Positions 1,828 to 9,192 are shown, counted from the first letter of the stretch. The stretch is DNA of 11,762 nucleotides from Candidatus Aenigmatarchaeota archaeon (GCA_046760225.1 JBHIDR010000024.1:1-11762); one strand, 5' to 3'. Program-made: numbers and translations. The notes: generated from the letters alone by a model not told the origin.

Positions 1828-4131
1828 ATGGTGGTAATGGCAGCCATACCTTTTTCTAATCTGAGAAAGGTCTTCTTACTCCTTTCCATGTTATTCTTCC
1901 TGGCACCTGTTGCATTAGCTGTCCCGTTCTCTCCTGAAAGCGGGAGCGGTGCAACAGATTTTGTTCTTCCTGCCTCACTTGCAGCATCAATAGCAATACC
2001 ACTGCTCCTTGCCTACAAGGGAAGGAAATACCTTGTAAAGGTAAGCTGGGAAGACATGAAGCAGATGTATGCGCCGAAAAGAACCTACCAGAACTTTCTT
2101 TCCTCAATAAGGAGGGCGGTCAGAAGCACAGTGAGCCGCCTCTCAAGAGCAGTCAGGAGTGTTGCCCGAACAGTCACTAGGACAGTGTCCAGTGTAGCAA
2201 GAACAGTCAGCAGGGCGGCCAGTGCTGCCAGAACTGTTGCCAGCAGGATTGTGAGCACAGCAAGCAGGGCTGTAAGAAGTGTTGGAAGGGCAATAAGCAA
2301 TGCTGCCTCCAGGGCAGTATCAACAGCACGCAGCATTGTAAGCAGGGCAGGCTCTGCGGTCCGAAGCGTTGCAAGAAGAGTATATTCAGGTGCAAGGACT
2401 GTTGCGCGCGCATATGTCAATACCCATGTCAGGGCTGCCCAGACAGTTGCAAGTGCAATAGGTGCTGTTAAGAAGTCTGTGCAGTCCTCAATATCCAGAA
2501 TTGTGAACAGAGCAAGCACTGTTGTAAAGAACATAGCCTCAAAGATTTCCTCTGGGCTCAAAGCAGCAAAACAAGTAGGAAAGGCACTGGTCAACAAGGT
2601 AAAGAAGGACATGGCTGCTGCAGGCTCTTTTATTTACAAGGGCATGAGGGATGCAAAGAACCTTGCCATTGCAGCTGGAAAAACTGTTGTAGACAGTGCA
2701 AAGGCTGTTGGCCAGTGGATAGTTGAGCATCCTTATGAGACAATAATGATTATCGGCATGATTGCCCTTGCCCTGACAGGAGTTGGCCTTATAGCTGACT
2801 TTGCAGTGGCAGGGTCAATATCCCTTGGAGCAATAGGAGCCAGCAGCACAGGTGCAATGCTCGGAACAGCTGGCTCCACCCTGTTCATAGCATCTGATGT
2901 TGCTCTAGGCGGTGTTTTTGCTGCTGATGTGGGCACAGCCTATATGGATGGCGGCTGGGAGGCCGCGAAGACTGTTATGGCTGAAAAGGGGCCAATGGTG
3001 GCTGTCACAATGGTTGGATATGGGGCGGGCGCTGCATTACGTCCAGTTGCGCAGATGATTGCCAGGACGCGTATAGGTGGAAAAATAGGTGCAGAAGTAG
3101 GCACAATTTTAGCGCGTAGCCAAGGCTATACCGATGACATCATAAGAAACATCGACGGCGGAGTGCCCAGGATAGCTGAACTGGAGGCAAAAGGCCTCAA
3201 AGCAAAGGACGTAAAGAGGATAATGGACATAGAAAATGGCGTAATTGATCCAGGTTATTCTAAAGCTGTTATGAACAAGCTCTCGGCAGAAGAGCTTGTA
3301 GGGTTAGAAAGAGCAAAACTTAAGCCTCATCAGATAGAAGAAATGGGAAAGCTGAAATTCAAAGCCAAAATAACAGGAAGCGTAAAGAAGGCAGAGATAG
3401 ATGGCGCAATAAAATCTCTGAAAAGAATAGATAAAGACCCTGCTCTTGTAAACAAAATGAATAAAGCTGGAGTTAAAGATATTACCATGAAACAATTCAA
3501 AGGAAACAATGCCAAGATTCCTGCAAGAATAAATGCCAAGGGAGAGATGGAGCTAAACAGCAGACTTATTAATGATTATAATCCTAAAGCATTAGTTTCT
3601 CATGAAGCACAGCATCTTATCGACAATGCTGCCTTCAAGGGAAGGTACAATCCGAATAAAGTTAAAAGAAATCTAATTAAAATGACAAAGATGAGTGATG
3701 ATGAAGCAGATAATATCATAAATATAGCAGAAGACATTATAGCTGACTCTAGAATACCTAAAAAGTATGCTATGTCTTTAGTGAAATCAGAACTAAATGC
3801 ATGGGAAAAGGGCTTGGTATCTCCAGATAAAAAGATTTTAGCCAAGTACTATGCTATTGTGAGAAATCGTGCTTCTCCAAAAGACATTTTAAAAGGTGAG
3901 GAAACAGGAAAATTCTTATCCAGAGTTGATGAAATAGTATCAAAAAGGGGTTTGAATAAAGGAGATCCTCATTTCACTGAAAAGGTTGGAAGGATGGGAG
4001 AATTATATTCTGTGAGGTCACAAAGGGTTTTATCAAAGGTTGAACAGAAAACAATGACAAATGCTGATCAAATAGAATTTGTAAAGAATCTGGACGATAT
4101 CACTTTATTTGTGGAAAAATCTTTTCCTTAA
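1828..4131 (+). CDS. Putative polymorphic toxin-like membrane/secreted protein with C-terminal zincin (HExxH) metallopeptidase domain
   Basis: 767-aa ORF: signal peptide (RKVFLLLSMLFFLAPVALA), TM at ~aa45-63 followed by KGRK, Arg/Lys-Ser-Ala-Val amphipathic repeats (aa77-260, no D/E), Gly/Ala-rich hydrophobic segments (~aa305-405), then HEAQH at 3601-3615 and NIAED at 3721-3735. The 3' part is visibly more AT-rich. The CDS itself is secure; the toxin role is inferred. The start could be the in-frame ATG at 1837. Confidence 0.7.
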   Translation: MVVMAAIPFSNLRKVFLLLSMLFFLAPVALAVPFSPESGSGATDFVLPASLAASIAIPLLLAYKGRKYLVKVSWEDMKQMYAPKRTYQNFLSSIRRAVRSTVSRLSRAVRSVARTVTRTVSSVARTVSRAASAARTVASRIVSTASRAVRSVGRAISNAASRAVSTARSIVSRAGSAVRSVARRVYSGARTVARAYVNTHVRAAQTVASAIGAVKKSVQSSISRIVNRASTVVKNIASKISSGLKAAKQVGKALVNKVKKDMAAAGSFIYKGMRDAKNLAIAAGKTVVDSAKAVGQWIVEHPYETIMIIGMIALALTGVGLIADFAVAGSISLGAIGASSTGAMLGTAGSTLFIASDVALGGVFAADVGTAYMDGGWEAAKTVMAEKGPMVAVTMVGYGAGAALRPVAQMIARTRIGGKIGAEVGTILARSQGYTDDIIRNIDGGVPRIAELEAKGLKAKDVKRIMDIENGVIDPGYSKAVMNKLSAEELVGLERAKLKPHQIEEMGKLKFKAKITGSVKKAEIDGAIKSLKRIDKDPALVNKMNKAGVKDITMKQFKGNNAKIPARINAKGEMELNSRLINDYNPKALVSHEAQHLIDNAAFKGRYNPNKVKRNLIKMTKMSDDEADNIINIAEDIIADSRIPKKYAMSLVKSELNAWEKGLVSPDKKILAKYYAIVRNRASPKDILKGEETGKFLSRVDEIVSKRGLNKGDPHFTEKVGRMGELYSVRSQRVLSKVEQKTMTNADQIEFVKNLDDITLFVEKSFP

Positions 4132-4143
4132 TTATTAGTTAAA

Positions 4144-4178
4144 AAAACAACATCCTTTTATACTTTTTAGAACTATTT
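4144..4178 (+). repeat. Promoter-containing direct repeat A, copy 1
   Basis: AAAACAACATCCTTTTATACTTTTTAGAACTATTT; 30/35 identical to 4822-4856; contains TATA-like TTTTATA (4156-4162) ~24 nt before ATG 4186. Confidence 0.85.
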
Positions 4179-4185
4179 AATTAAT

Positions 4186-4611
4186 ATGTCACCTGTACCA
4201 CCATTATCATTATATCATGAATATAGATATTATAAAAGACTCCTATCAATGCAGTGTAAAGATTTGAAATTACCTAAAAAAATCACGGATTTTGTACTAA
4301 AATTTTATACTGTATTGACCTATAAAATCTGGAAAAAAGAAATATCTCTTGAACCAGCTACGTATCAGGTAGTGGCACTAGTTTCAATTTATCAGGCTTC
4401 GAAAATGAAAAAATTTAAAATTTCTTTAAAAAATTTAACAAAGAAGCTAAAAAAGATAACTTATTATCAACTTGCTCTGCAGTATAATAAGGAATATGAA
4501 GAAAAGGTAAATTTCAAAACAATAAAATACATAGAGGAGGAATACAAAAAAATTGAGGAGGAATATAGAAAGAAGGGGAAAAAGCTAAAAAGAAGAAGAT
4601 GGCAATACTAG
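4186..4611 (+). CDS. Gene A1: basic 141-aa protein resembling a single TFIIB/TFB cyclin-fold repeat; candidate immunity protein
   Basis: ORF with its own TATA box directly behind the toxin-like gene. CKDLKLPKKITDFVLKFY and QVVALVSIYQASKMKKFKISLKNL resemble the TFB repeat patterns CSxLGLPxxVxExAxxIY and VAAAxIYxAxRxxGxPxTLxEI (by eye). Confidence 0.6.
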   Translation: MSPVPPLSLYHEYRYYKRLLSMQCKDLKLPKKITDFVLKFYTVLTYKIWKKEISLEPATYQVVALVSIYQASKMKKFKISLKNLTKKLKKITYYQLALQYNKEYEEKVNFKTIKYIEEEYKKIEEEYRKKGKKLKRRRWQY

Positions 4612-4635
4612 AACAACGCCCTTAAATATGTCTTC
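4612..4635 (+). repeat. Promoter-containing direct repeat B, copy 1
   Basis: AACAACGCCCTTAAATATGTCTTC; 22/24 identical to 5264-5287; starts immediately after the gene A1 stop; TATA-like CTTAAATA 26 nt before ATG 4654. Confidence 0.85.
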
Positions 4636-4653
4636 AATACTCTTAATAGGTAT

Positions 4654-4779
4654 ATGATTTTAATGCCCCGTGATGAAACCAGAAAGTTTTTTGTTAAGGG
4701 TGCAAAACATATCTTAAATGAGATGAAAGATAATGATGCAACAGAATTTACAGGAATATTTTCCTTTTTTACATCATAG
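4654..4779 (+). pseudogene. Gene B1: truncated 41-aa paralog of the 5306..5647 protein
   Basis: MILMPRDETRKFFVKGAKHILNEMKDNDATEFTGIFSFFTS*; ILNEMKDNDATEFTGIFSFF aligns without gaps to IMRDMIKKGGRDFAGMISFF of 5306..5647; same promoter repeat at the same spacing. Confidence 0.75.
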
Positions 4780-4823
4780 AATTTGCTGAAAAGGTTGATG
4801 ATCTTCTATTTTTAGATAAATAA
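4776..4823 (+). pseudogene. Relic of the extreme C-terminus of a variant toxin gene
   Basis: Reads IEFAEKVDDLLFLDK*, compared with IEFVKNLDDITLFVEKSFP* at 4072-4131; both begin ATAGAATTTG and both are followed by promoter repeat A. Confidence 0.65.
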
Positions 4824-4856
4824 AACAACATGTTTTTATACTTGTTAAATCTATTT
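4822..4856 (+). repeat. Promoter-containing direct repeat A, copy 2
   Basis: AAAACAACATGTTTTTATACTTGTTAAATCTATTT; 30/35 identical to 4144-4178; TTTTTATA (4833-4840) ~21 nt before ATG 4861. Confidence 0.85.
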
Positions 4857-4860
4857 TTAT

Positions 4861-5262
4861 ATGATGATTAAACATCATAAAAGAAAGAGTACCCCTAAAA
4901 TCAGAGTTATTGTACCACGGAAATTATTTGTTGATATAAAGGATAATATAGAATTCCGTAAAAGATTTAGTGATGTACTTAAGCATTTATCAGAATTAGG
5001 ATTCTCTGAAAAAGACCTAGATAAATTCTTTTATTTAACAGATAAATTCATGTTAAAATACAGCATCAAAATTAATTCTGAACAAATAAAACATTTCCCA
5101 AAAATAAGGGTTAATGATATGGTAAGGGCTTCCATACAACATCTTCAAGAAAAGGAAGAAATTTCTTTGACAGATGAGCAGACGAATAAGATTCAGAATA
5201 TGTACAAATCAAGTCCTGAAAGGATTAAGAAGGTTCTTGAGCTTATTAAAGATATAGAATAA
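4861..5262 (+). CDS. Gene A2: 133-aa helical protein, possible highly diverged cyclin-fold/TFB-like repeat; candidate orphan immunity protein
   Basis: Occupies the same slot as A1 between repeats A and B. LSELGFSEKDLDKFFYL, NDMVRASIQHLQEKEEISLT and MYKSSPERIKKVLELI follow the helix pattern of a TFB repeat; similarity to A1 is weak. Confidence 0.55.
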   Translation: MMIKHHKRKSTPKIRVIVPRKLFVDIKDNIEFRKRFSDVLKHLSELGFSEKDLDKFFYLTDKFMLKYSIKINSEQIKHFPKIRVNDMVRASIQHLQEKEEISLTDEQTNKIQNMYKSSPERIKKVLELIKDIE

Positions 5263-5263
5263 A

Positions 5264-5287
5264 AACGACGCCCTTAAATACGTCTTC
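5264..5287 (+). repeat. Promoter-containing direct repeat B, copy 2
   Basis: AACGACGCCCTTAAATACGTCTTC; 22/24 identical to 4612-4635; CTTAAATA 26 nt before ATG 5306. Confidence 0.85.
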
Positions 5288-5305
5288 GAACAATTAAAAT
5301 AATGT

Positions 5306-5647
5306 ATGATAAAATCCAACGGAAAATTCTTGAAAAATCTAGAAAAGGATTTTGATATAATAATGAGGGATATGATAAAGAAAGGAGGAAGGGATTTCGC
5401 AGGTATGATATCCTTCTTCAACAAGAATAATGATGTATCGTCAATATTTTTCAGATATTCTCCGAACCTTAATAAAAGCCTGATAGTGATGGCTACAGTT
5501 GCTTGTCAATCAGCTAAACTCTTTTATAGTAATGCGAACAAATGGGGTGTTGACGGAAGGGTTGTAATGAAAAAGCTTTTCGGTGAAGAGCTTCAATTAT
5601 GGCATAAAACAGGTACATTTGAGGAGAATTGGGATAAATTAACGTAA
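5306..5647 (+). CDS. Gene B2: hypothetical 113-aa protein (full-length member of the B family)
   Basis: ORF with own TATA-containing repeat; N-terminal part homologous to truncated 4654..4779. No family recognised. Confidence 0.75.
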   Translation: MIKSNGKFLKNLEKDFDIIMRDMIKKGGRDFAGMISFFNKNNDVSSIFFRYSPNLNKSLIVMATVACQSAKLFYSNANKWGVDGRVVMKKLFGEELQLWHKTGTFEENWDKLT

Positions 5648-5667
5648 ATATCAATTGAGGTGGTTAA

Positions 5668-5952
5668 ATGCAAAGGGTATGGATAGCGTCAAAAAGGAAA
5701 ATAAAAAAGGAGAAGTGGATTAAAATACCCCCCAAGAAAGATGAATCTGTCACAGATATGGTCAACAGATTACTGGATACTTTTGAAGAAGAAAAAAAGA
5801 AAATGGAAATTGAAAAACTTATAAGAAAGCATAAGGACGGACTTACTACTCAAGAGATTGCTGAGAAGATGAACTTGAATACATTATTTCTCTTGAAAGT
5901 ACTTCCTGAGCTTGTAAATGAGGGTAGGATAAAGAGGGTGTTGAAGCACTAA
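5668..5952 (+). CDS. Small DNA-binding protein: N-terminal RHH/antitoxin-like segment fused to a winged helix-turn-helix
   Basis: GAGGTG Shine-Dalgarno at 5657-5662; KKDESVTDMVNRLLD resembles the ESFSDVIxRLL helix of archaeal RHH antitoxin-type proteins; GLTTQEIAEKMNLNTLFLLKVLPELVNEGRIKRV is a typical wHTH. Confidence 0.7.
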   Translation: MQRVWIASKRKIKKEKWIKIPPKKDESVTDMVNRLLDTFEEEKKKMEIEKLIRKHKDGLTTQEIAEKMNLNTLFLLKVLPELVNEGRIKRVLKH

Positions 5953-6570
5953 TCACTTCCTCTTCCTTTTTGCCTTTTTGGTGCGTTTGTTTCTTTTTGC
6001 CTTTTTCGCCTTCAGCCTTGCAATCTCCTTTTTAAGATGGACCAGCTCGTTCATCCTGAGCTTCGTGAGGGAGGTGCTGATGCTGGCTATACCAGCCTTT
6101 ATCTCCTCCAGGTCTGCCTCTATCTTCACCAATTTGGGCACATAGTGCGGAACATTCTTTTCCACCAGCTCTGCAAGCTTGTCAACAGATCTTGGCGACA
6201 GGCCTGACCTCTTCAGGACGCTCTTTATTTCATTGTCATCCAGGCCATATCTGCTCAGTGTGCGCACTATGTTGACTGCTATCTTCTCACCTTCCTTTGG
6301 CCTGTCAGTGAGCTTTATGCTGGCCTCTATTCCCCTTACCATGACTATGGACAGCATTCCCACAATAAAGTTCACAAGATAAAACAGCCAGCCCAAGGCA
6401 GTAAAGGAAACAAAATTGAATATCAGAACCAGCACGACCACGAAGATGAACATGTCAACTATCAGTGCCTTTGCCTTTGGCCTGCCGAAGGCACGGAAGG
6501 TTATCATTTCACCTACGAATATCCCTATCAGCAGCGCCATCAGCGCTATCATTTGCGTTAGTATTTCCAT
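5953..6570 (-). CDS. Membrane protein (about 3 N-terminal TM helices) with cytoplasmic helical domain, short coiled coil and very basic tail
   Basis: 205-aa ORF with hydrophobic segments in the first ~80 aa; C-terminus KAKKAKRNKRTKKAKRKRK; start abuts the upstream stop (GGTGAA TGA ATG), with an SD-like GGTGA. Confidence 0.8.
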   Translation of the reverse strand: MEILTQMIALMALLIGIFVGEMITFRAFGRPKAKALIVDMFIFVVVLVLIFNFVSFTALGWLFYLVNFIVGMLSIVMVRGIEASIKLTDRPKEGEKIAVNIVRTLSRYGLDDNEIKSVLKRSGLSPRSVDKLAELVEKNVPHYVPKLVKIEADLEEIKAGIASISTSLTKLRMNELVHLKKEIARLKAKKAKRNKRTKKAKRKRK

Positions 6571-9192
6571 TCATTCACCCTGTTCATATGAAAGCCTTTT
6601 CTGCATCCTGTAGAGCTTGTCATCAAGTGCTTTGATTATGTCTCCCATGGGCTCCTTTCCCCTGTTTCTTTTGAGGTCTTCCAGCTGCTCCTCTACGTTG
6701 TCAATCCTAAAGTGGGCATCACTCTGTGCCATCTGCGCCTTTATTGCAGCAATTTCCTGCTGGATGTGCATTATGTGCTGCTGTATTGAATCAAGCTGGG
6801 AAAGCCCGCTCCTTATAACCTGAAGTTCGTCCCCAAAGGTTAAATTCTTTGGCATTTCAGCCAGATGTTTACCCATTGAGTTCACTGTCGAGTGCAGGCT
6901 ATCTATTGCTGTACTCATCGTGCTTAGCTCCTTCATGCTCTTTTCCATGGCATTGAGCCTTTTTTCCATGTCCTCCAGCTGGTTGCTCTGGCTTATGCTG
7001 TTAGCAAGCTCAAGTAAGGCGGTGTCCATCTCCTTCTTTGATACAAAGTCCTTGGGCATTTTACCTTCTATTTCCTTGACCTTGTCCTCAATAAAGGAAG
7101 AAATGCTTCCCATATCAGGCTTCTGTACCATCTTGCCCCTTGTCTCTGAAATCATTTCCTGCAACCTCTCCTTTTCCTGCTCCAGCTCCTTAATCCTGTT
7201 CTGCAGGGAATCCATTATCTTCCTTTCCTCTGTCCTGTCCTGGCTTTCAGAGACCTTCTTTATTTCAGAAAACATCACCTGGTTCCTGCTCTCGACCATG
7301 GAAAGTCCCTGTTTGAGGGATGCCAATTCATTCTGAATATTGTTTCTCAGCTCTTCCATGCTTTTGATCACTGGTGCGATCTCAGATGAGAAGTCCTGGG
7401 CGTTTATTCTGGCATTTATGTCATTTGCCCATTGCTTCAGGTTGACAACCTGCTGCTCCAGTTTCCTTCTCTCTGTTTCTATTTTTTCATCAATGGACCT
7501 GGCGAACTCTTCATTCAGCTTGTTGCTCATCCGTACCTCCAAATCTTCAATTTCCGGTTTCTTTACAATATCCTCTGGCAATTCTGGCACCTCCTCTTCG
7601 ACTTTATCTATTCTTCTTTCCAGCTCATCCATTCTTGAAGTATCAGTCTCAGGCCGGATTTCCTCTATTTCCCTCAGCTTGCTCTCGATTTCCGCTCTCT
7701 TTCCTCTCTCTTCTGCAAGCCTGTTTCTTATCTCTTCAATATCAGTGTTTATAATATTCCTTAGTTTCCTGATATCATCATGACCTATGAGGTTCCTCTC
7801 TATACTTTCTATTACCCTCTCTATTTTTCTTATACCTTCCCCTGCCTTGGCCATTTCACTGTCCCTTCCCACCAGCCTGTTTTGCAGCTCATTGACCATC
7901 TGCCTGTTTTGCATTATTTCTTTCTGCAGCACTGCTCTCCTGCTTTCTTCCTCTGCTTTTATCCTTTCGTACCATCGGGATACCATTTCTCCTACATTAG
8001 AAATATCAGTTTCTTTTACTGACTTCTCAATATCCTGGATTTTTCCCTCTATATTATTTATCTTGTGGGAGTGATTGGGAATTGAAATGCTGGAAACAGT
8101 GCTTTCCAGCTCCCTTATCTTTTTCCGCAAGTCTTGGATGTCCTCAGAATAATCATGTATTGAAGACACTGTGCCTTCTATTTCCCTTATCTTCTTCCTG
8201 ATACCATCTATATCAGCAGAATAATCAGGAAACGATATCTTTGACAGCTTGTCTTCAAGCTCTTTGACCTCCCTCCTGATCAGTTTGATCTCCCTTGTGT
8301 TGTCAACCAACTTGAGGTCTTCTATTTCTGAAGAAAATCTTGATATAATGTCATGGTTCTTTCCTATTCCCTTGAGCGCTGTGTTTACGCTCTCCTCTAT
8401 GGTGCTGCCCCAGTTGCCCAGTGACTTCAGGGTAGAGTTTGCCTTCTCAATCCTGTTCTTGTTTTCCTTGACTTCTTCAGCAAGTGATTTTGTTATCCTC
8501 AGGCTCTTGCTCAGGCTGCTTATGCATTCCTTGAGCTCATCAATGTCCCTTTCTATGCCTGACATCTCCTCTTTTCTTGCGAACTTCTTGTCAAAATCAG
8601 AAGCAGCATCAAACAGCTTCTTGTTGAGCGTTGATATTGCAGAATTTATGAACTCTATCTTTTCCCTGAAATTATATTCCTGCTTTTCGAGCTGTTCATC
8701 CAGCTCCTTGGGCAGCCTTTCCAGCTTCCTTATCTTCCTTTCCAGCTCGTCCATTGATCTTCTGAACTTCTTGTTCAGTACCTTGAAATCTCCTGCCTCG
8801 GTCCTGATGTCCTTTTGGAAAACCTTCATCTTGCTTTCAAGTTCATTCCTTGCTGCTCGTGTCTCCCTTATCCCGCGCTCCAGCTCTGTTTTTACTTCCT
8901 TTATGTTTTTTAATTCCCTGTCCAGCTCCCTCACGGATTTCTGGATGTTGAGAAGAACTCTTCTGTCGGCCTTCTCGTCCTTCAGGTCCATCAGTTTCCT
9001 TTGAAGCATGGAAAGCGACTTCTTTGTCTGCCTTTCCAGACGCTCTGTAGCCTTGATTTTTATCAGCGTCGAGCCCGCGCCTTCCCTGTACATCTCAGAC
9101 AGTCTCTCGTCAATGTCAGCTATCCTTCTGTTCAAATCAGCTATTTTTGATTTGAAATCAGCTGGACTATTAAGAACCACACGTTCCCCCAT
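6571..9192 (-). CDS. Long coiled-coil protein (873 aa) of unknown function
   Basis: E/K/R/I/L-rich heptad pattern over almost the whole length, broken by Pro-containing linkers; no Walker A/B, signal peptide or TM seen; TATA-like CTTAAAT (9216-9222, - strand) ~24 nt upstream. Confidence 0.85.
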   Translation of the reverse strand: MGERVVLNSPADFKSKIADLNRRIADIDERLSEMYREGAGSTLIKIKATERLERQTKKSLSMLQRKLMDLKDEKADRRVLLNIQKSVRELDRELKNIKEVKTELERGIRETRAARNELESKMKVFQKDIRTEAGDFKVLNKKFRRSMDELERKIRKLERLPKELDEQLEKQEYNFREKIEFINSAISTLNKKLFDAASDFDKKFARKEEMSGIERDIDELKECISSLSKSLRITKSLAEEVKENKNRIEKANSTLKSLGNWGSTIEESVNTALKGIGKNHDIISRFSSEIEDLKLVDNTREIKLIRREVKELEDKLSKISFPDYSADIDGIRKKIREIEGTVSSIHDYSEDIQDLRKKIRELESTVSSISIPNHSHKINNIEGKIQDIEKSVKETDISNVGEMVSRWYERIKAEEESRRAVLQKEIMQNRQMVNELQNRLVGRDSEMAKAGEGIRKIERVIESIERNLIGHDDIRKLRNIINTDIEEIRNRLAEERGKRAEIESKLREIEEIRPETDTSRMDELERRIDKVEEEVPELPEDIVKKPEIEDLEVRMSNKLNEEFARSIDEKIETERRKLEQQVVNLKQWANDINARINAQDFSSEIAPVIKSMEELRNNIQNELASLKQGLSMVESRNQVMFSEIKKVSESQDRTEERKIMDSLQNRIKELEQEKERLQEMISETRGKMVQKPDMGSISSFIEDKVKEIEGKMPKDFVSKKEMDTALLELANSISQSNQLEDMEKRLNAMEKSMKELSTMSTAIDSLHSTVNSMGKHLAEMPKNLTFGDELQVIRSGLSQLDSIQQHIMHIQQEIAAIKAQMAQSDAHFRIDNVEEQLEDLKRNRGKEPMGDIIKALDDKLYRMQKRLSYEQGE
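8017..8226 (-). repeat. Internal tandem 24-26-aa repeat in the coiled-coil gene
   Basis: DYSADIDGIRKKIREIEGTVSSIH / DYSEDIQDLRKKIRELESTVSSISIP / NHSHKINNIEGKIQDIEKSV; the first two units start 72 nt apart (8226, 8154). Confidence 0.75.

Follow-up and report, generated by a model that had tools for sequence, protein, structure and literature searches.

Organization of the locus

The DNA analysed in this work, hereafter the window, is one complete contig of 11,762 nucleotides (GCA_046760225.1 JBHIDR010000024.1:1-11762) from Candidatus Aenigmatarchaeota archaeon, a DPANN archaeon whose source genome comprises 0.85 Mb in 83 contigs and is 83% complete. Its central feature is an open reading frame (ORF) of 767 aa on the plus strand (1828-4131), which ends in a zincin-like metallopeptidase domain and is followed by an array of small genes, repeated elements and remnants (Table 1). 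Sequence comparison supports the reading of this locus as a polymorphic toxin system, and we consider it likely that it is a full-length member of a polymorphic toxin family in Aenigmatarchaeota-type DPANN, with an exported, membrane-active carrier, a swappable C-terminal tip, A1 as immunity gene and orphan leftovers further downstream. A first-pass annotation had described the modular toxin ORF with its HEAQH motif, as well as the ORFs of A1, A2, B2 and the winged-helix-like protein, all of which were recovered here.

Table 1. Features of the toxin-like locus, numbered from the first nucleotide of the window
Feature	Position	Strand	Basis
Signal-peptide-like N-terminus, aa1-31	1828..1920	+	Hydrophobic core aa15-35; kept in both close homologs
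Marginal transmembrane/anchor segment, aa45-65, with basic residues aa64-68 behind	1960..2031	+	Conserved in 3/3 close homologs
Cationic Ala/Ser/Val-rich amphipathic helical region, aa86-295	2083..2712	+	Helical periodicity, charge
Conserved head ("pre-toxin" module), aa296-430: W-x3-HPYE and Gly/Ala-rich hydrophobic hairpin	2713..3117	+	Marks cassette starts in relatives
Zincin-like metallopeptidase, low GC	3328..4131	+	H592-E593-x-x-H596; likely third ligand E635 (ExxxAD)
pA, AT-rich repeated element; TATA-like box at 4156, about 30 nt upstream of A1	4131..4178	+	84% to second copy
A1, cognate partner, immunity candidate	4186..4611	+	Ortholog directly behind G001 toxin
pB, repeated element; TATA-like box at 4621	4612..4635	+	92% to second copy
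B1, 41-aa truncated remnant	4654..4779	+	Likeness to B2 start; same place behind pB
Tail relic: end of an older allele (same zincin family), 15 codons and stop	4776..4823	+	Match to toxin end
pA, second copy	4808..4856	+	Repeat of 4131-4178
A2, orphan small protein behind tail relic	4861..5262	+	Position only
pB, second copy	5264..5287	+	Repeat of 4612-4635
B2, orphan small protein	5306..5647	+	Weak likeness to two other-cassette partner genes
Winged-helix-like small protein (HTH-like)	5668..5952	+	Sub-threshold Rrf2/MarR/HTH matches

The candidate toxin protein and its zincin-like domain

On a crude scale of our own, the protein contains four hydrophobic segments (aa15-35, aa45-65, aa306-326 and aa325-364, the second and the fourth of them marginal). 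The first would form the core of a signal peptide cleaved after A31, and a profile search of the same genome found no second copy of aa15-92 (best E 0.19). Within the region that follows the putative anchor, a strong amphipathic helix spans aa86-200 (periodicity 99 degrees, net charge +23 in 115 aa); the region has a periodicity of 98.5-100 degrees in the window protein and in both close homologs, its halves have net charges of +23 and +15, and in Pfam it gave apolipoprotein-like matches at sub-threshold level only. The strong hydrophobic segment aa306-326 and its Gly/Ala-rich continuation belong to the module that we call the head. Markers of the RHS, LXG/WXG, FilH, Hint, MuF and PVC types were not matched in Pfam, searched with 10 window proteins and the two toxin halves, or in NCBIfam, which agrees with the earlier observation that RHS, LXG, Hint and filamentous haemagglutinin motifs are missing.

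The C-terminal domain carries the HEAQH motif at aa592-596, and residues H592, E593, H596, E635, D636 and D640 are invariant in 3/3 close homologs. A model of this domain built by AF2 on three rows reached a pLDDT of 91.5. Among its best structural neighbours are M48 proteases of the Ste24/BepA type (Ste24/ZMPSTE24, Z 6.1-6.3) and, by Foldseek, phage domains linked to vWA/CobT (E 0.016 and above), which have in common with it the HExxH motif and a downstream ExxxAD-type helix; at such scores (Z at most 6.3, E at least 0.016) the likeness covers a shared core and assigns no family. Many of the best fold neighbours are zincins, all of them below firm thresholds: none of 48,161 chains reached Z >=8 in VIA, where the top row (Z 6.7) is a mitoribosome assembly chain, and a Foldseek comparison with PDB and viral models returned 0 matches at E <=0.001. 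Its rows with anthrax lethal factor and collagenases (E 0.15 and above) reflect the common zincin core only, and these proteins were rejected as relatives. In Pfam, aa431-767 matched 0 families at E <=0.1, the Tox-MPTase and DUF4157 models, presumably part of the Pfam copy searched, among those not matched; no M48 profile matched, and no family in Pfam, NCBIfam or the named PHROG families fits the domain. From sequence and model, the domain is probably a gluzincin-type protease of no described family.

Close homologs and the mosaic signal

Two close homologs were found: P0002, with 52% identity over aa270-767, and a gene of a same-genus relative (G001), with 48% over aa17-762, the one clear match among 60 relatives. 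The gene order around the toxin locus is the same in G001, where a single gene, an ortholog of A1, stands between the toxin and the next convergent gene, and A2, B2 and the HTH gene are absent.

Base composition changes along the window toxin gene, confirming the GC drop noticed earlier: GC is 0.503 over aa1-430 and 0.363 over aa431-767, and it reaches 0.28 in A1 and A2, compared with 0.44 for the genome, in which only 22/4131 windows of 400 nt, the toxin locus included, have GC <=0.28. Since GC3 drops as well, the low GC does not merely reflect amino-acid bias. In G001, toxin GC3 is 0.82-0.86 and falls to 0.34-0.52 past about aa500, and the partner gene has a GC of 0.36 among neighbours of 0.53-0.56. 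In all 5/5 genes or cassettes measured, GC is lower in the tip than in the head, with the partner gene as low or lower. The informative sites that group P0002 with G001 amount to 104/200 before aa520 and 31/94 after it (Fisher p 0.0026; 7/500 permutations). This change of signal near aa520, together with the GC3 mosaic of G001, suggests that within the genus the tip has been exchanged for other alleles of one family.

One head on different tips

The head is the best-conserved region among close homologs (86/137 aligned columns invariant), and its family motif is W-x3-HP[YW]E. A two-row profile of aa278-497 matched 3/371 genomes of the phylum, the third of which, G269, was matched twice, by an ORF that starts at HPWE and has a different terminal HExxH domain, and by a 53-aa relic; against 1.84 billion representatives, this two-row profile returned the window protein and P0002 only. 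Wider head profiles yielded P0009 and 4/371 genomes of the phylum, a patchy distribution, with six places in G269. A first metagenome scan confirmed 0/166 pattern matches, and a wider one reduced 418 pattern matches to four loci, of which L037 and L038 were kept and two weak ones dropped. The head was not found in plasmids, and viral contigs gave 1 weak 36-aa match in 46 stretches. Rejected candidates were G011 (ribonucleotide reductase-like), G118 and G121 (tRNA synthetase-like and transposase-like frames) and L039 (302 aa, matching over 36 aa and lacking an enzyme tip), and family counts exclude L040, L041, L032, G113, G335, G339 and G356.

Across this family, one head is joined to dissimilar C-terminal domains. 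In L038, a 1249-aa protein truncated by the start of the contig combines a long N-half unrelated to that of the window protein with the head and a zincin; a 160-aa gene and the start of another head follow. L037 holds two tandem cassettes whose heads have 160 nt of near-identical DNA in common and whose C-terminal domains, dissimilar and with E..D..ExK patterns, are each followed by their own small gene; by motif, these two tips resemble PD-(D/E)xK nucleases. In both loci one small gene lies between successive cassettes. In G269 and G302 there are, besides cassettes and head relics, full-length carriers that begin with signal peptides and measure 1375 and 1608 aa, and the head or its second half occurs on five further zincin groups or variants in L038, G269 (contigs C58, C40, C39 and C10) and G302. 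The 11 visible tips, 9 zincin-like (one with HEYSE for HExxH) and 2 PD-(D/E)xK-like by motif, fall into 7 mutually dissimilar groups (z <=5.1 between groups, >=16 within). In the tips of L038, G269-C58, G269-C10 and G302, the HExxH-type motif has an E..AD motif behind it. Stand-alone cassettes, relics or orphans were seen in the window, L037, L038 and the G269 contigs C58, C39, C10 and C26.

The 11 tips in seven groups on one head, the cassettes and the partner genes that track the tips (see below) support the proposal of a polymorphic toxin system whose delivery part is of an unrecognised kind. The delivery module had, however, been placed at aa1-420, and only part of this assignment holds: the conserved and widely reused part is the head, aa296-430, whereas the half composed of signal, anchor and long amphipathic helix occurs in 3 proteins only, all with the same zincin family. 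The system had been said to fail if the C-terminus proved constant and variable downstream genes were lacking; at family level the head bears different tips and different downstream genes, and constancy is confined to those 3 proteins.

The carriers and their surroundings also bring a different role into view. In relatives the N-halves are long and extracellular and type IV pilus-type genes are nearby; the window protein has a signal peptide, and the gene divergent from it encodes a large secreted FG-GAP/sugar-binding protein whose start resembles that of its G001 counterpart. All of this would suit a host-entry or feeding protease, a surface enzyme that digests the S-layer of the host where the symbiont attaches; A1 would then be an inhibitor acting inside the cell, and variation would reflect host range rather than killing. 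A protease step on the host S-layer has been proposed for a nanohaloarchaeon (10.1101/2023.02.24.529834). We judge this role quite improbable, because nuclease-like tips on the same head would be of no use on an S-layer, the protease stands behind a hydrophobic hairpin and not a stalk, and the partner genes, as read, lack signal peptides.

Several further observations concern the family loci. The carriers of G269 contig C22 (L052:3-3989 and 4416-8257) and of G302 (L063:378-2210) adjoin genes that, in our own reading, are of the type IV pilus/T2SS ATPase and TadC-like kinds; no type IV pilus-type genes lie beside the window carrier. The C39 cassette and the cut end of the C22 carrier have a 158-nt tract in common. 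In C39 (L061:2794-5984), a nuclease-like tail is followed by five small genes (GC 0.30-0.36) and then by the next cassette, a polyimmunity-like string. In C58 (L010:1923-2729), a RimK-like ATP-grasp gene lies directly behind a zincin cassette and its partner, and the end of this contig overlaps the start of C26 by 55 nt. Contig C26 (L011:2531-12160) encodes a protein of 3210+ aa with a signal peptide, an internal transmembrane segment with a basic patch, and several enzyme-like domains, among them RelA/SpoT (Pfam E 2e-7), a YraN-like nuclease (NCBIfam E 2e-4) and an HExxH motif; it is a giant multi-toxin candidate in a DPANN genome, with a head relic 1.7 kb away.

Partner genes

Partner genes largely track the tip groups: z is about 35 for A1 and its G001 counterpart and about 39 for L038 and G269-C58, and for L038 and G302 0/5000 shuffles reached the score; one winged-helix family goes with two different G269 tips, and the remaining tips have single partner families each. 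The comparison was made without P0002, whose partner was outside view. A1 matches its G001 ortholog with 39% identity over 122 aa (E 3e-26) and is, on the sequence evidence, the cognate partner of the zincin tip. A complex prediction of the zincin with A1 scored 0.16 against a mark of 0.32 and was not used as evidence.

Judged from its predicted structure, A1 may have a cyclin/TFIIB-repeat-like fold. The Atlas model has a pTM of 0.80, and its structural look-alikes (TM 0.53-0.67, all under the naming bar) fall into cyclin/TFIIB-type clusters in 8/10 rows. With a profile of TFB repeats, made from six repeats of the same genome, A1 ranked first of 14 small proteins and 1/1000 shuffles scored as well; with its G001 ortholog, 56/1000 shuffles did so, which is chance level, and hhalign gave 0.5% over 61 columns. 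PF00382 had 6 matches at E <=10 in the same genome, none of them at A1. The 0.85-Mb genome contains three TFB-like genes (contigs C5, C1 and C4 of G000), and the frame on C4, of 201 aa, leaves little space past two cyclin repeats. Other partners of zincin tips resemble, at sub-threshold scores, zinc ribbons (TFIIB Zn-binding, E 0.1-0.3) or winged helices (HTH_45, E 2e-4 in 3/4 related partners of G269). Two paralogous partners lie behind the C39 tip of G269.

Such transcription-factor-like partners are the basis for two further ideas. In the first, the protein would be a membrane-tethered signalling protease whose zincin faces its own cytoplasm and cleaves a neighbouring small transcription factor as substrate. 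BlaR1/BlaI and IrrE/DdrO are models for this logic of a protease plus a transcription-factor substrate. An inward topology is possible after the anchor aa45-68, an HTH gene closes the window array, and zincin-tip partners resemble transcription-factor parts (cyclin/TFIIB-like, winged helix, zinc ribbon), all of which would suit this role. We nevertheless regard signalling as unlikely: the same head is found on nuclease-like tips and at the start of orphan cassettes and relics, none of which a sensor needs, tips and partners are low in GC and exchanged, and the window protein has no extracellular sensor domain, its loop comprising 13 residues.

The second idea belongs to the polymorphic toxin reading, and we put it forward as a speculation with a low chance of being right: membrane-tethered zinc proteases delivered over the DPANN contact zone would cleave the target archaeon's basal transcription machinery, with decoys made from pieces of that machinery serving as immunity proteins. 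These decoys would be a TFB-like cyclin repeat in A1, and zinc ribbons and winged helices, as TFB/TFE parts, in the relatives. If true, this would be a polymorphic toxin class directed against archaeal transcription, with substrate-mimic immunity and with delivery that uses no known secretion machine.

The downstream array

The repeated elements and the tail relic described in the first-pass annotation withstood statistical comparison. The copies of pA are 84% identical (E 3.5e-8 genome-wide) and those of pB 92%, and each pair outscored 500/500 Markov shuffles. Each copy has a TATA-like box 27-33 nt upstream of an ATG. In archaea, promoters have a BRE/TATA layout, and such spacing fits the promoters of leaderless genes; pA is therefore probably an archaeal promoter. 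A sigma-70 promoter scan remained at chance level and its model is inapplicable to archaea. In G001, an 11-nt core of pB also lies upstream of the A1 ortholog. Another contig of the window genome (G000:C73) holds a third pB-like element at about 1084-1112, with 86% identity over 29 nt, upstream of a predicted membrane-protein gene on the minus strand.

The tail relic matches the final 16 residues of the window toxin (0/2000 shuffles) and, less strongly, the tails of two homologs (47/2000 and 33/2000). A2 stands behind this relic of an older tail, hence it is best read as that tail's partner, probably the immunity gene of a displaced tip. No homolog of A2 was found among 20 candidates, and a model from a three-row alignment with the A1 pair was unusable (pLDDT 46). 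B2 shows some likeness to two partners from other cassettes (2/5000 and 9/5000 shuffles; 1/1623 other ORFs of the genome scores equally high), to be taken as a lead only, as one of the two gave no BLASTP alignment. The winged-helix-like protein is dissimilar to the winged-helix partners of G269 (z <=2.1) and may be a regulator or an additional orphan.

The array had been interpreted as a duplicated cassette with a two-gene accessory module per toxin. The repeats and the relic are confirmed and B1 resembles B2 weakly (18/2000 shuffles reach the score), but A1 and A2 do not behave as copies: 519/2000 shuffles reach their score, hhalign gives a probability of 0.5%, and A2 compared with the A1 ortholog of G001 is likewise at 432/2000. 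The two-gene module is not sustained, since a single gene follows the toxin in G001, and also in the first cassette of L037 and in L038, and homology between A1 and A2 is undetectable; A2, B1 and B2 read better as orphan immunity genes from earlier tip swaps.

The undetectable homology of A1 and A2 and the absence of A2, B2 and the HTH gene from the G001 locus would also be expected if an ordinary membrane protease gene simply lay beside a decayed local duplication of unrelated small genes. This we hold to be very improbable, given that the tail relic and the repeated promoters are in register, that A1 is retained in place in G001, and that the layout recurs in G269, where behind a tail relic stands another copy of the partner gene belonging to that tail. 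The B1/relic junction is also present, with zero differences, in a contig from a second run of the same study (spanning 4303-6700), which argues against mis-assembly.

Proposed mechanism

Under the polymorphic toxin reading, we hypothesize that the toxin protein would enter the membrane by the Sec route and that the amphipathic helix and the HP[YW]E head would act on membranes, carrying the zinc protease into or onto a contacted cell, either the host itself or a rival symbiont on that host, where it would cut a protein. In the producer, A1, expressed from its own promoter, would neutralise the protease. The 3' part of the gene and the partner gene would be replaced jointly by recombination, mostly within the conserved head in the family and, in the genus of the window, also at about aa510-540, and each swap would push the old tail and its partner genes downstream, giving rise to the relic, A2, B1 and B2. 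If aa45-65 anchors the protein, the tip may face the producer cytoplasm, which would explain the separate promoter of A1, and membrane fusion or a cytoplasmic bridge would be needed. If this segment is cut or passing through, the protein would be released, and helix and head would insert into the target membrane. Cytoplasmic bridges or membrane fusion structures have been reported for DPANN-host pairs (10.1101/2023.02.24.529834).

Several points weigh against this interpretation. Delivery is its weakest step. No delivery apparatus adjoins the toxin gene in the window, and an inward-facing protease would need membrane fusion. With 9 of the 11 tips zincin-like, tip variety alone leaves room for a housekeeping protease role, and P0002 and G001 have the same zincin family as the window, their differences being allelic only. 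The L037 tips fit no named family in Pfam, NCBIfam or PHROGs, so that their nuclease label consists of motifs read by eye; a PDB sequence search with the second tip was without match, and in PADLOC an L037 tip gave a weak Cas4 match (E 0.032). Finally, one winged-helix partner family is common to two dissimilar zincins (G269 C40 and C39), therefore partner specificity is not one-to-one.

Relation to known systems

Polymorphic toxins, zincin tips and predicted archaeal systems are already known, and the head-based family is absent from the libraries searched. The order of toxin and immunity gene, cassettes and strings of orphan immunity genes define the polymorphic toxin layout, and zincins are listed among its toxin tips (Zhang et al., 2012, PMC3482391). 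As far as they are described in that source, those systems resemble the present one in their exported multi-part protein, variable C-terminal enzyme, toxin-then-partner order, stand-alone cassettes and orphan string; the present system differs in that it has no known carrier marker, a head without library family, an archaeal symbiont as bearer, mostly zincin tips and, at the window locus, partners with promoter-like elements of their own. The zincin toxins Tox-MPTase1-5, ALF-MPTase and HopH1-like also place an HExxH zincin as C-terminal domain before a small gene, but Tox-MPTase-type toxins are bacterial and typically stand behind RHS repeats or are PVC-delivered (PMC3482391), and the window zincin is without a Pfam match.

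For archaea, polymorphic toxins that have PD-DExK tips and carriers containing Ig domains have been predicted (Makarova et al., 2019, as cited in PMC8416519 and PMC6393860), and in 2021 they were described as uncharacterised (PMC8416519). Relatives in the head family likewise have long extracellular N-halves and PD-(D/E)xK-like tips; however, the signature DUF4157 protease of the predicted systems is not matched here, and nucleases are said to be the commonest tips there, zincins being so here. The VARTIG module of Thermococcales (PMC8416519) similarly combines a long first gene with a shuffled C-terminus and co-varying small downstream genes, but its variable parts are Ig domains with no identified toxin, whereas in the present family what varies is an enzyme that follows a hydrophobic head. 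In the passages of literature available for comparison, with the mBio 2019 archaeal survey and its supplements standing outside it, neither this head nor systems of this kind in Aenigmatarchaeota were described.

This family bears on the ways in which DPANN symbionts damage their hosts or keep rivals out, and the available text of one study calls the proteins of the DPANN contact zone unknown (10.1101/2023.02.24.529834). The family suggests that symbionts may fight neighbours or attack hosts with swappable weapons. With the head as a marker, it offers seven tip groups and their matching partner genes for simple expression and rescue testing without symbiont culture, together with zincin tips and candidate inhibitors that have no profile in the libraries searched.

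Genomic setting

The sequencing runs listed as containing the window DNA, none of them an RNA run, carry the label hydrothermal vent metagenome. Four DNA runs of one study, one of them possibly the source, yielded no joints or alternative cassettes. Upstream of the toxin, at 1-1707 on the minus strand, lies the divergent gene of the large secreted protein, in which a galactose-binding-like domain is combined with FG-GAP repeats; the gene is cut by the contig end, and a 21.7-kb contig from a run reaches further. Downstream, the convergent genes encode a 205-aa membrane protein, a coiled-coil protein, a nitroreductase and a DNA ligase. The first two, to which no family was assigned, are adjacent on the minus strand (5953-6570 for the membrane protein and 6571-9192 for the coiled-coil protein, of 873 aa), and their order is conserved in G001.

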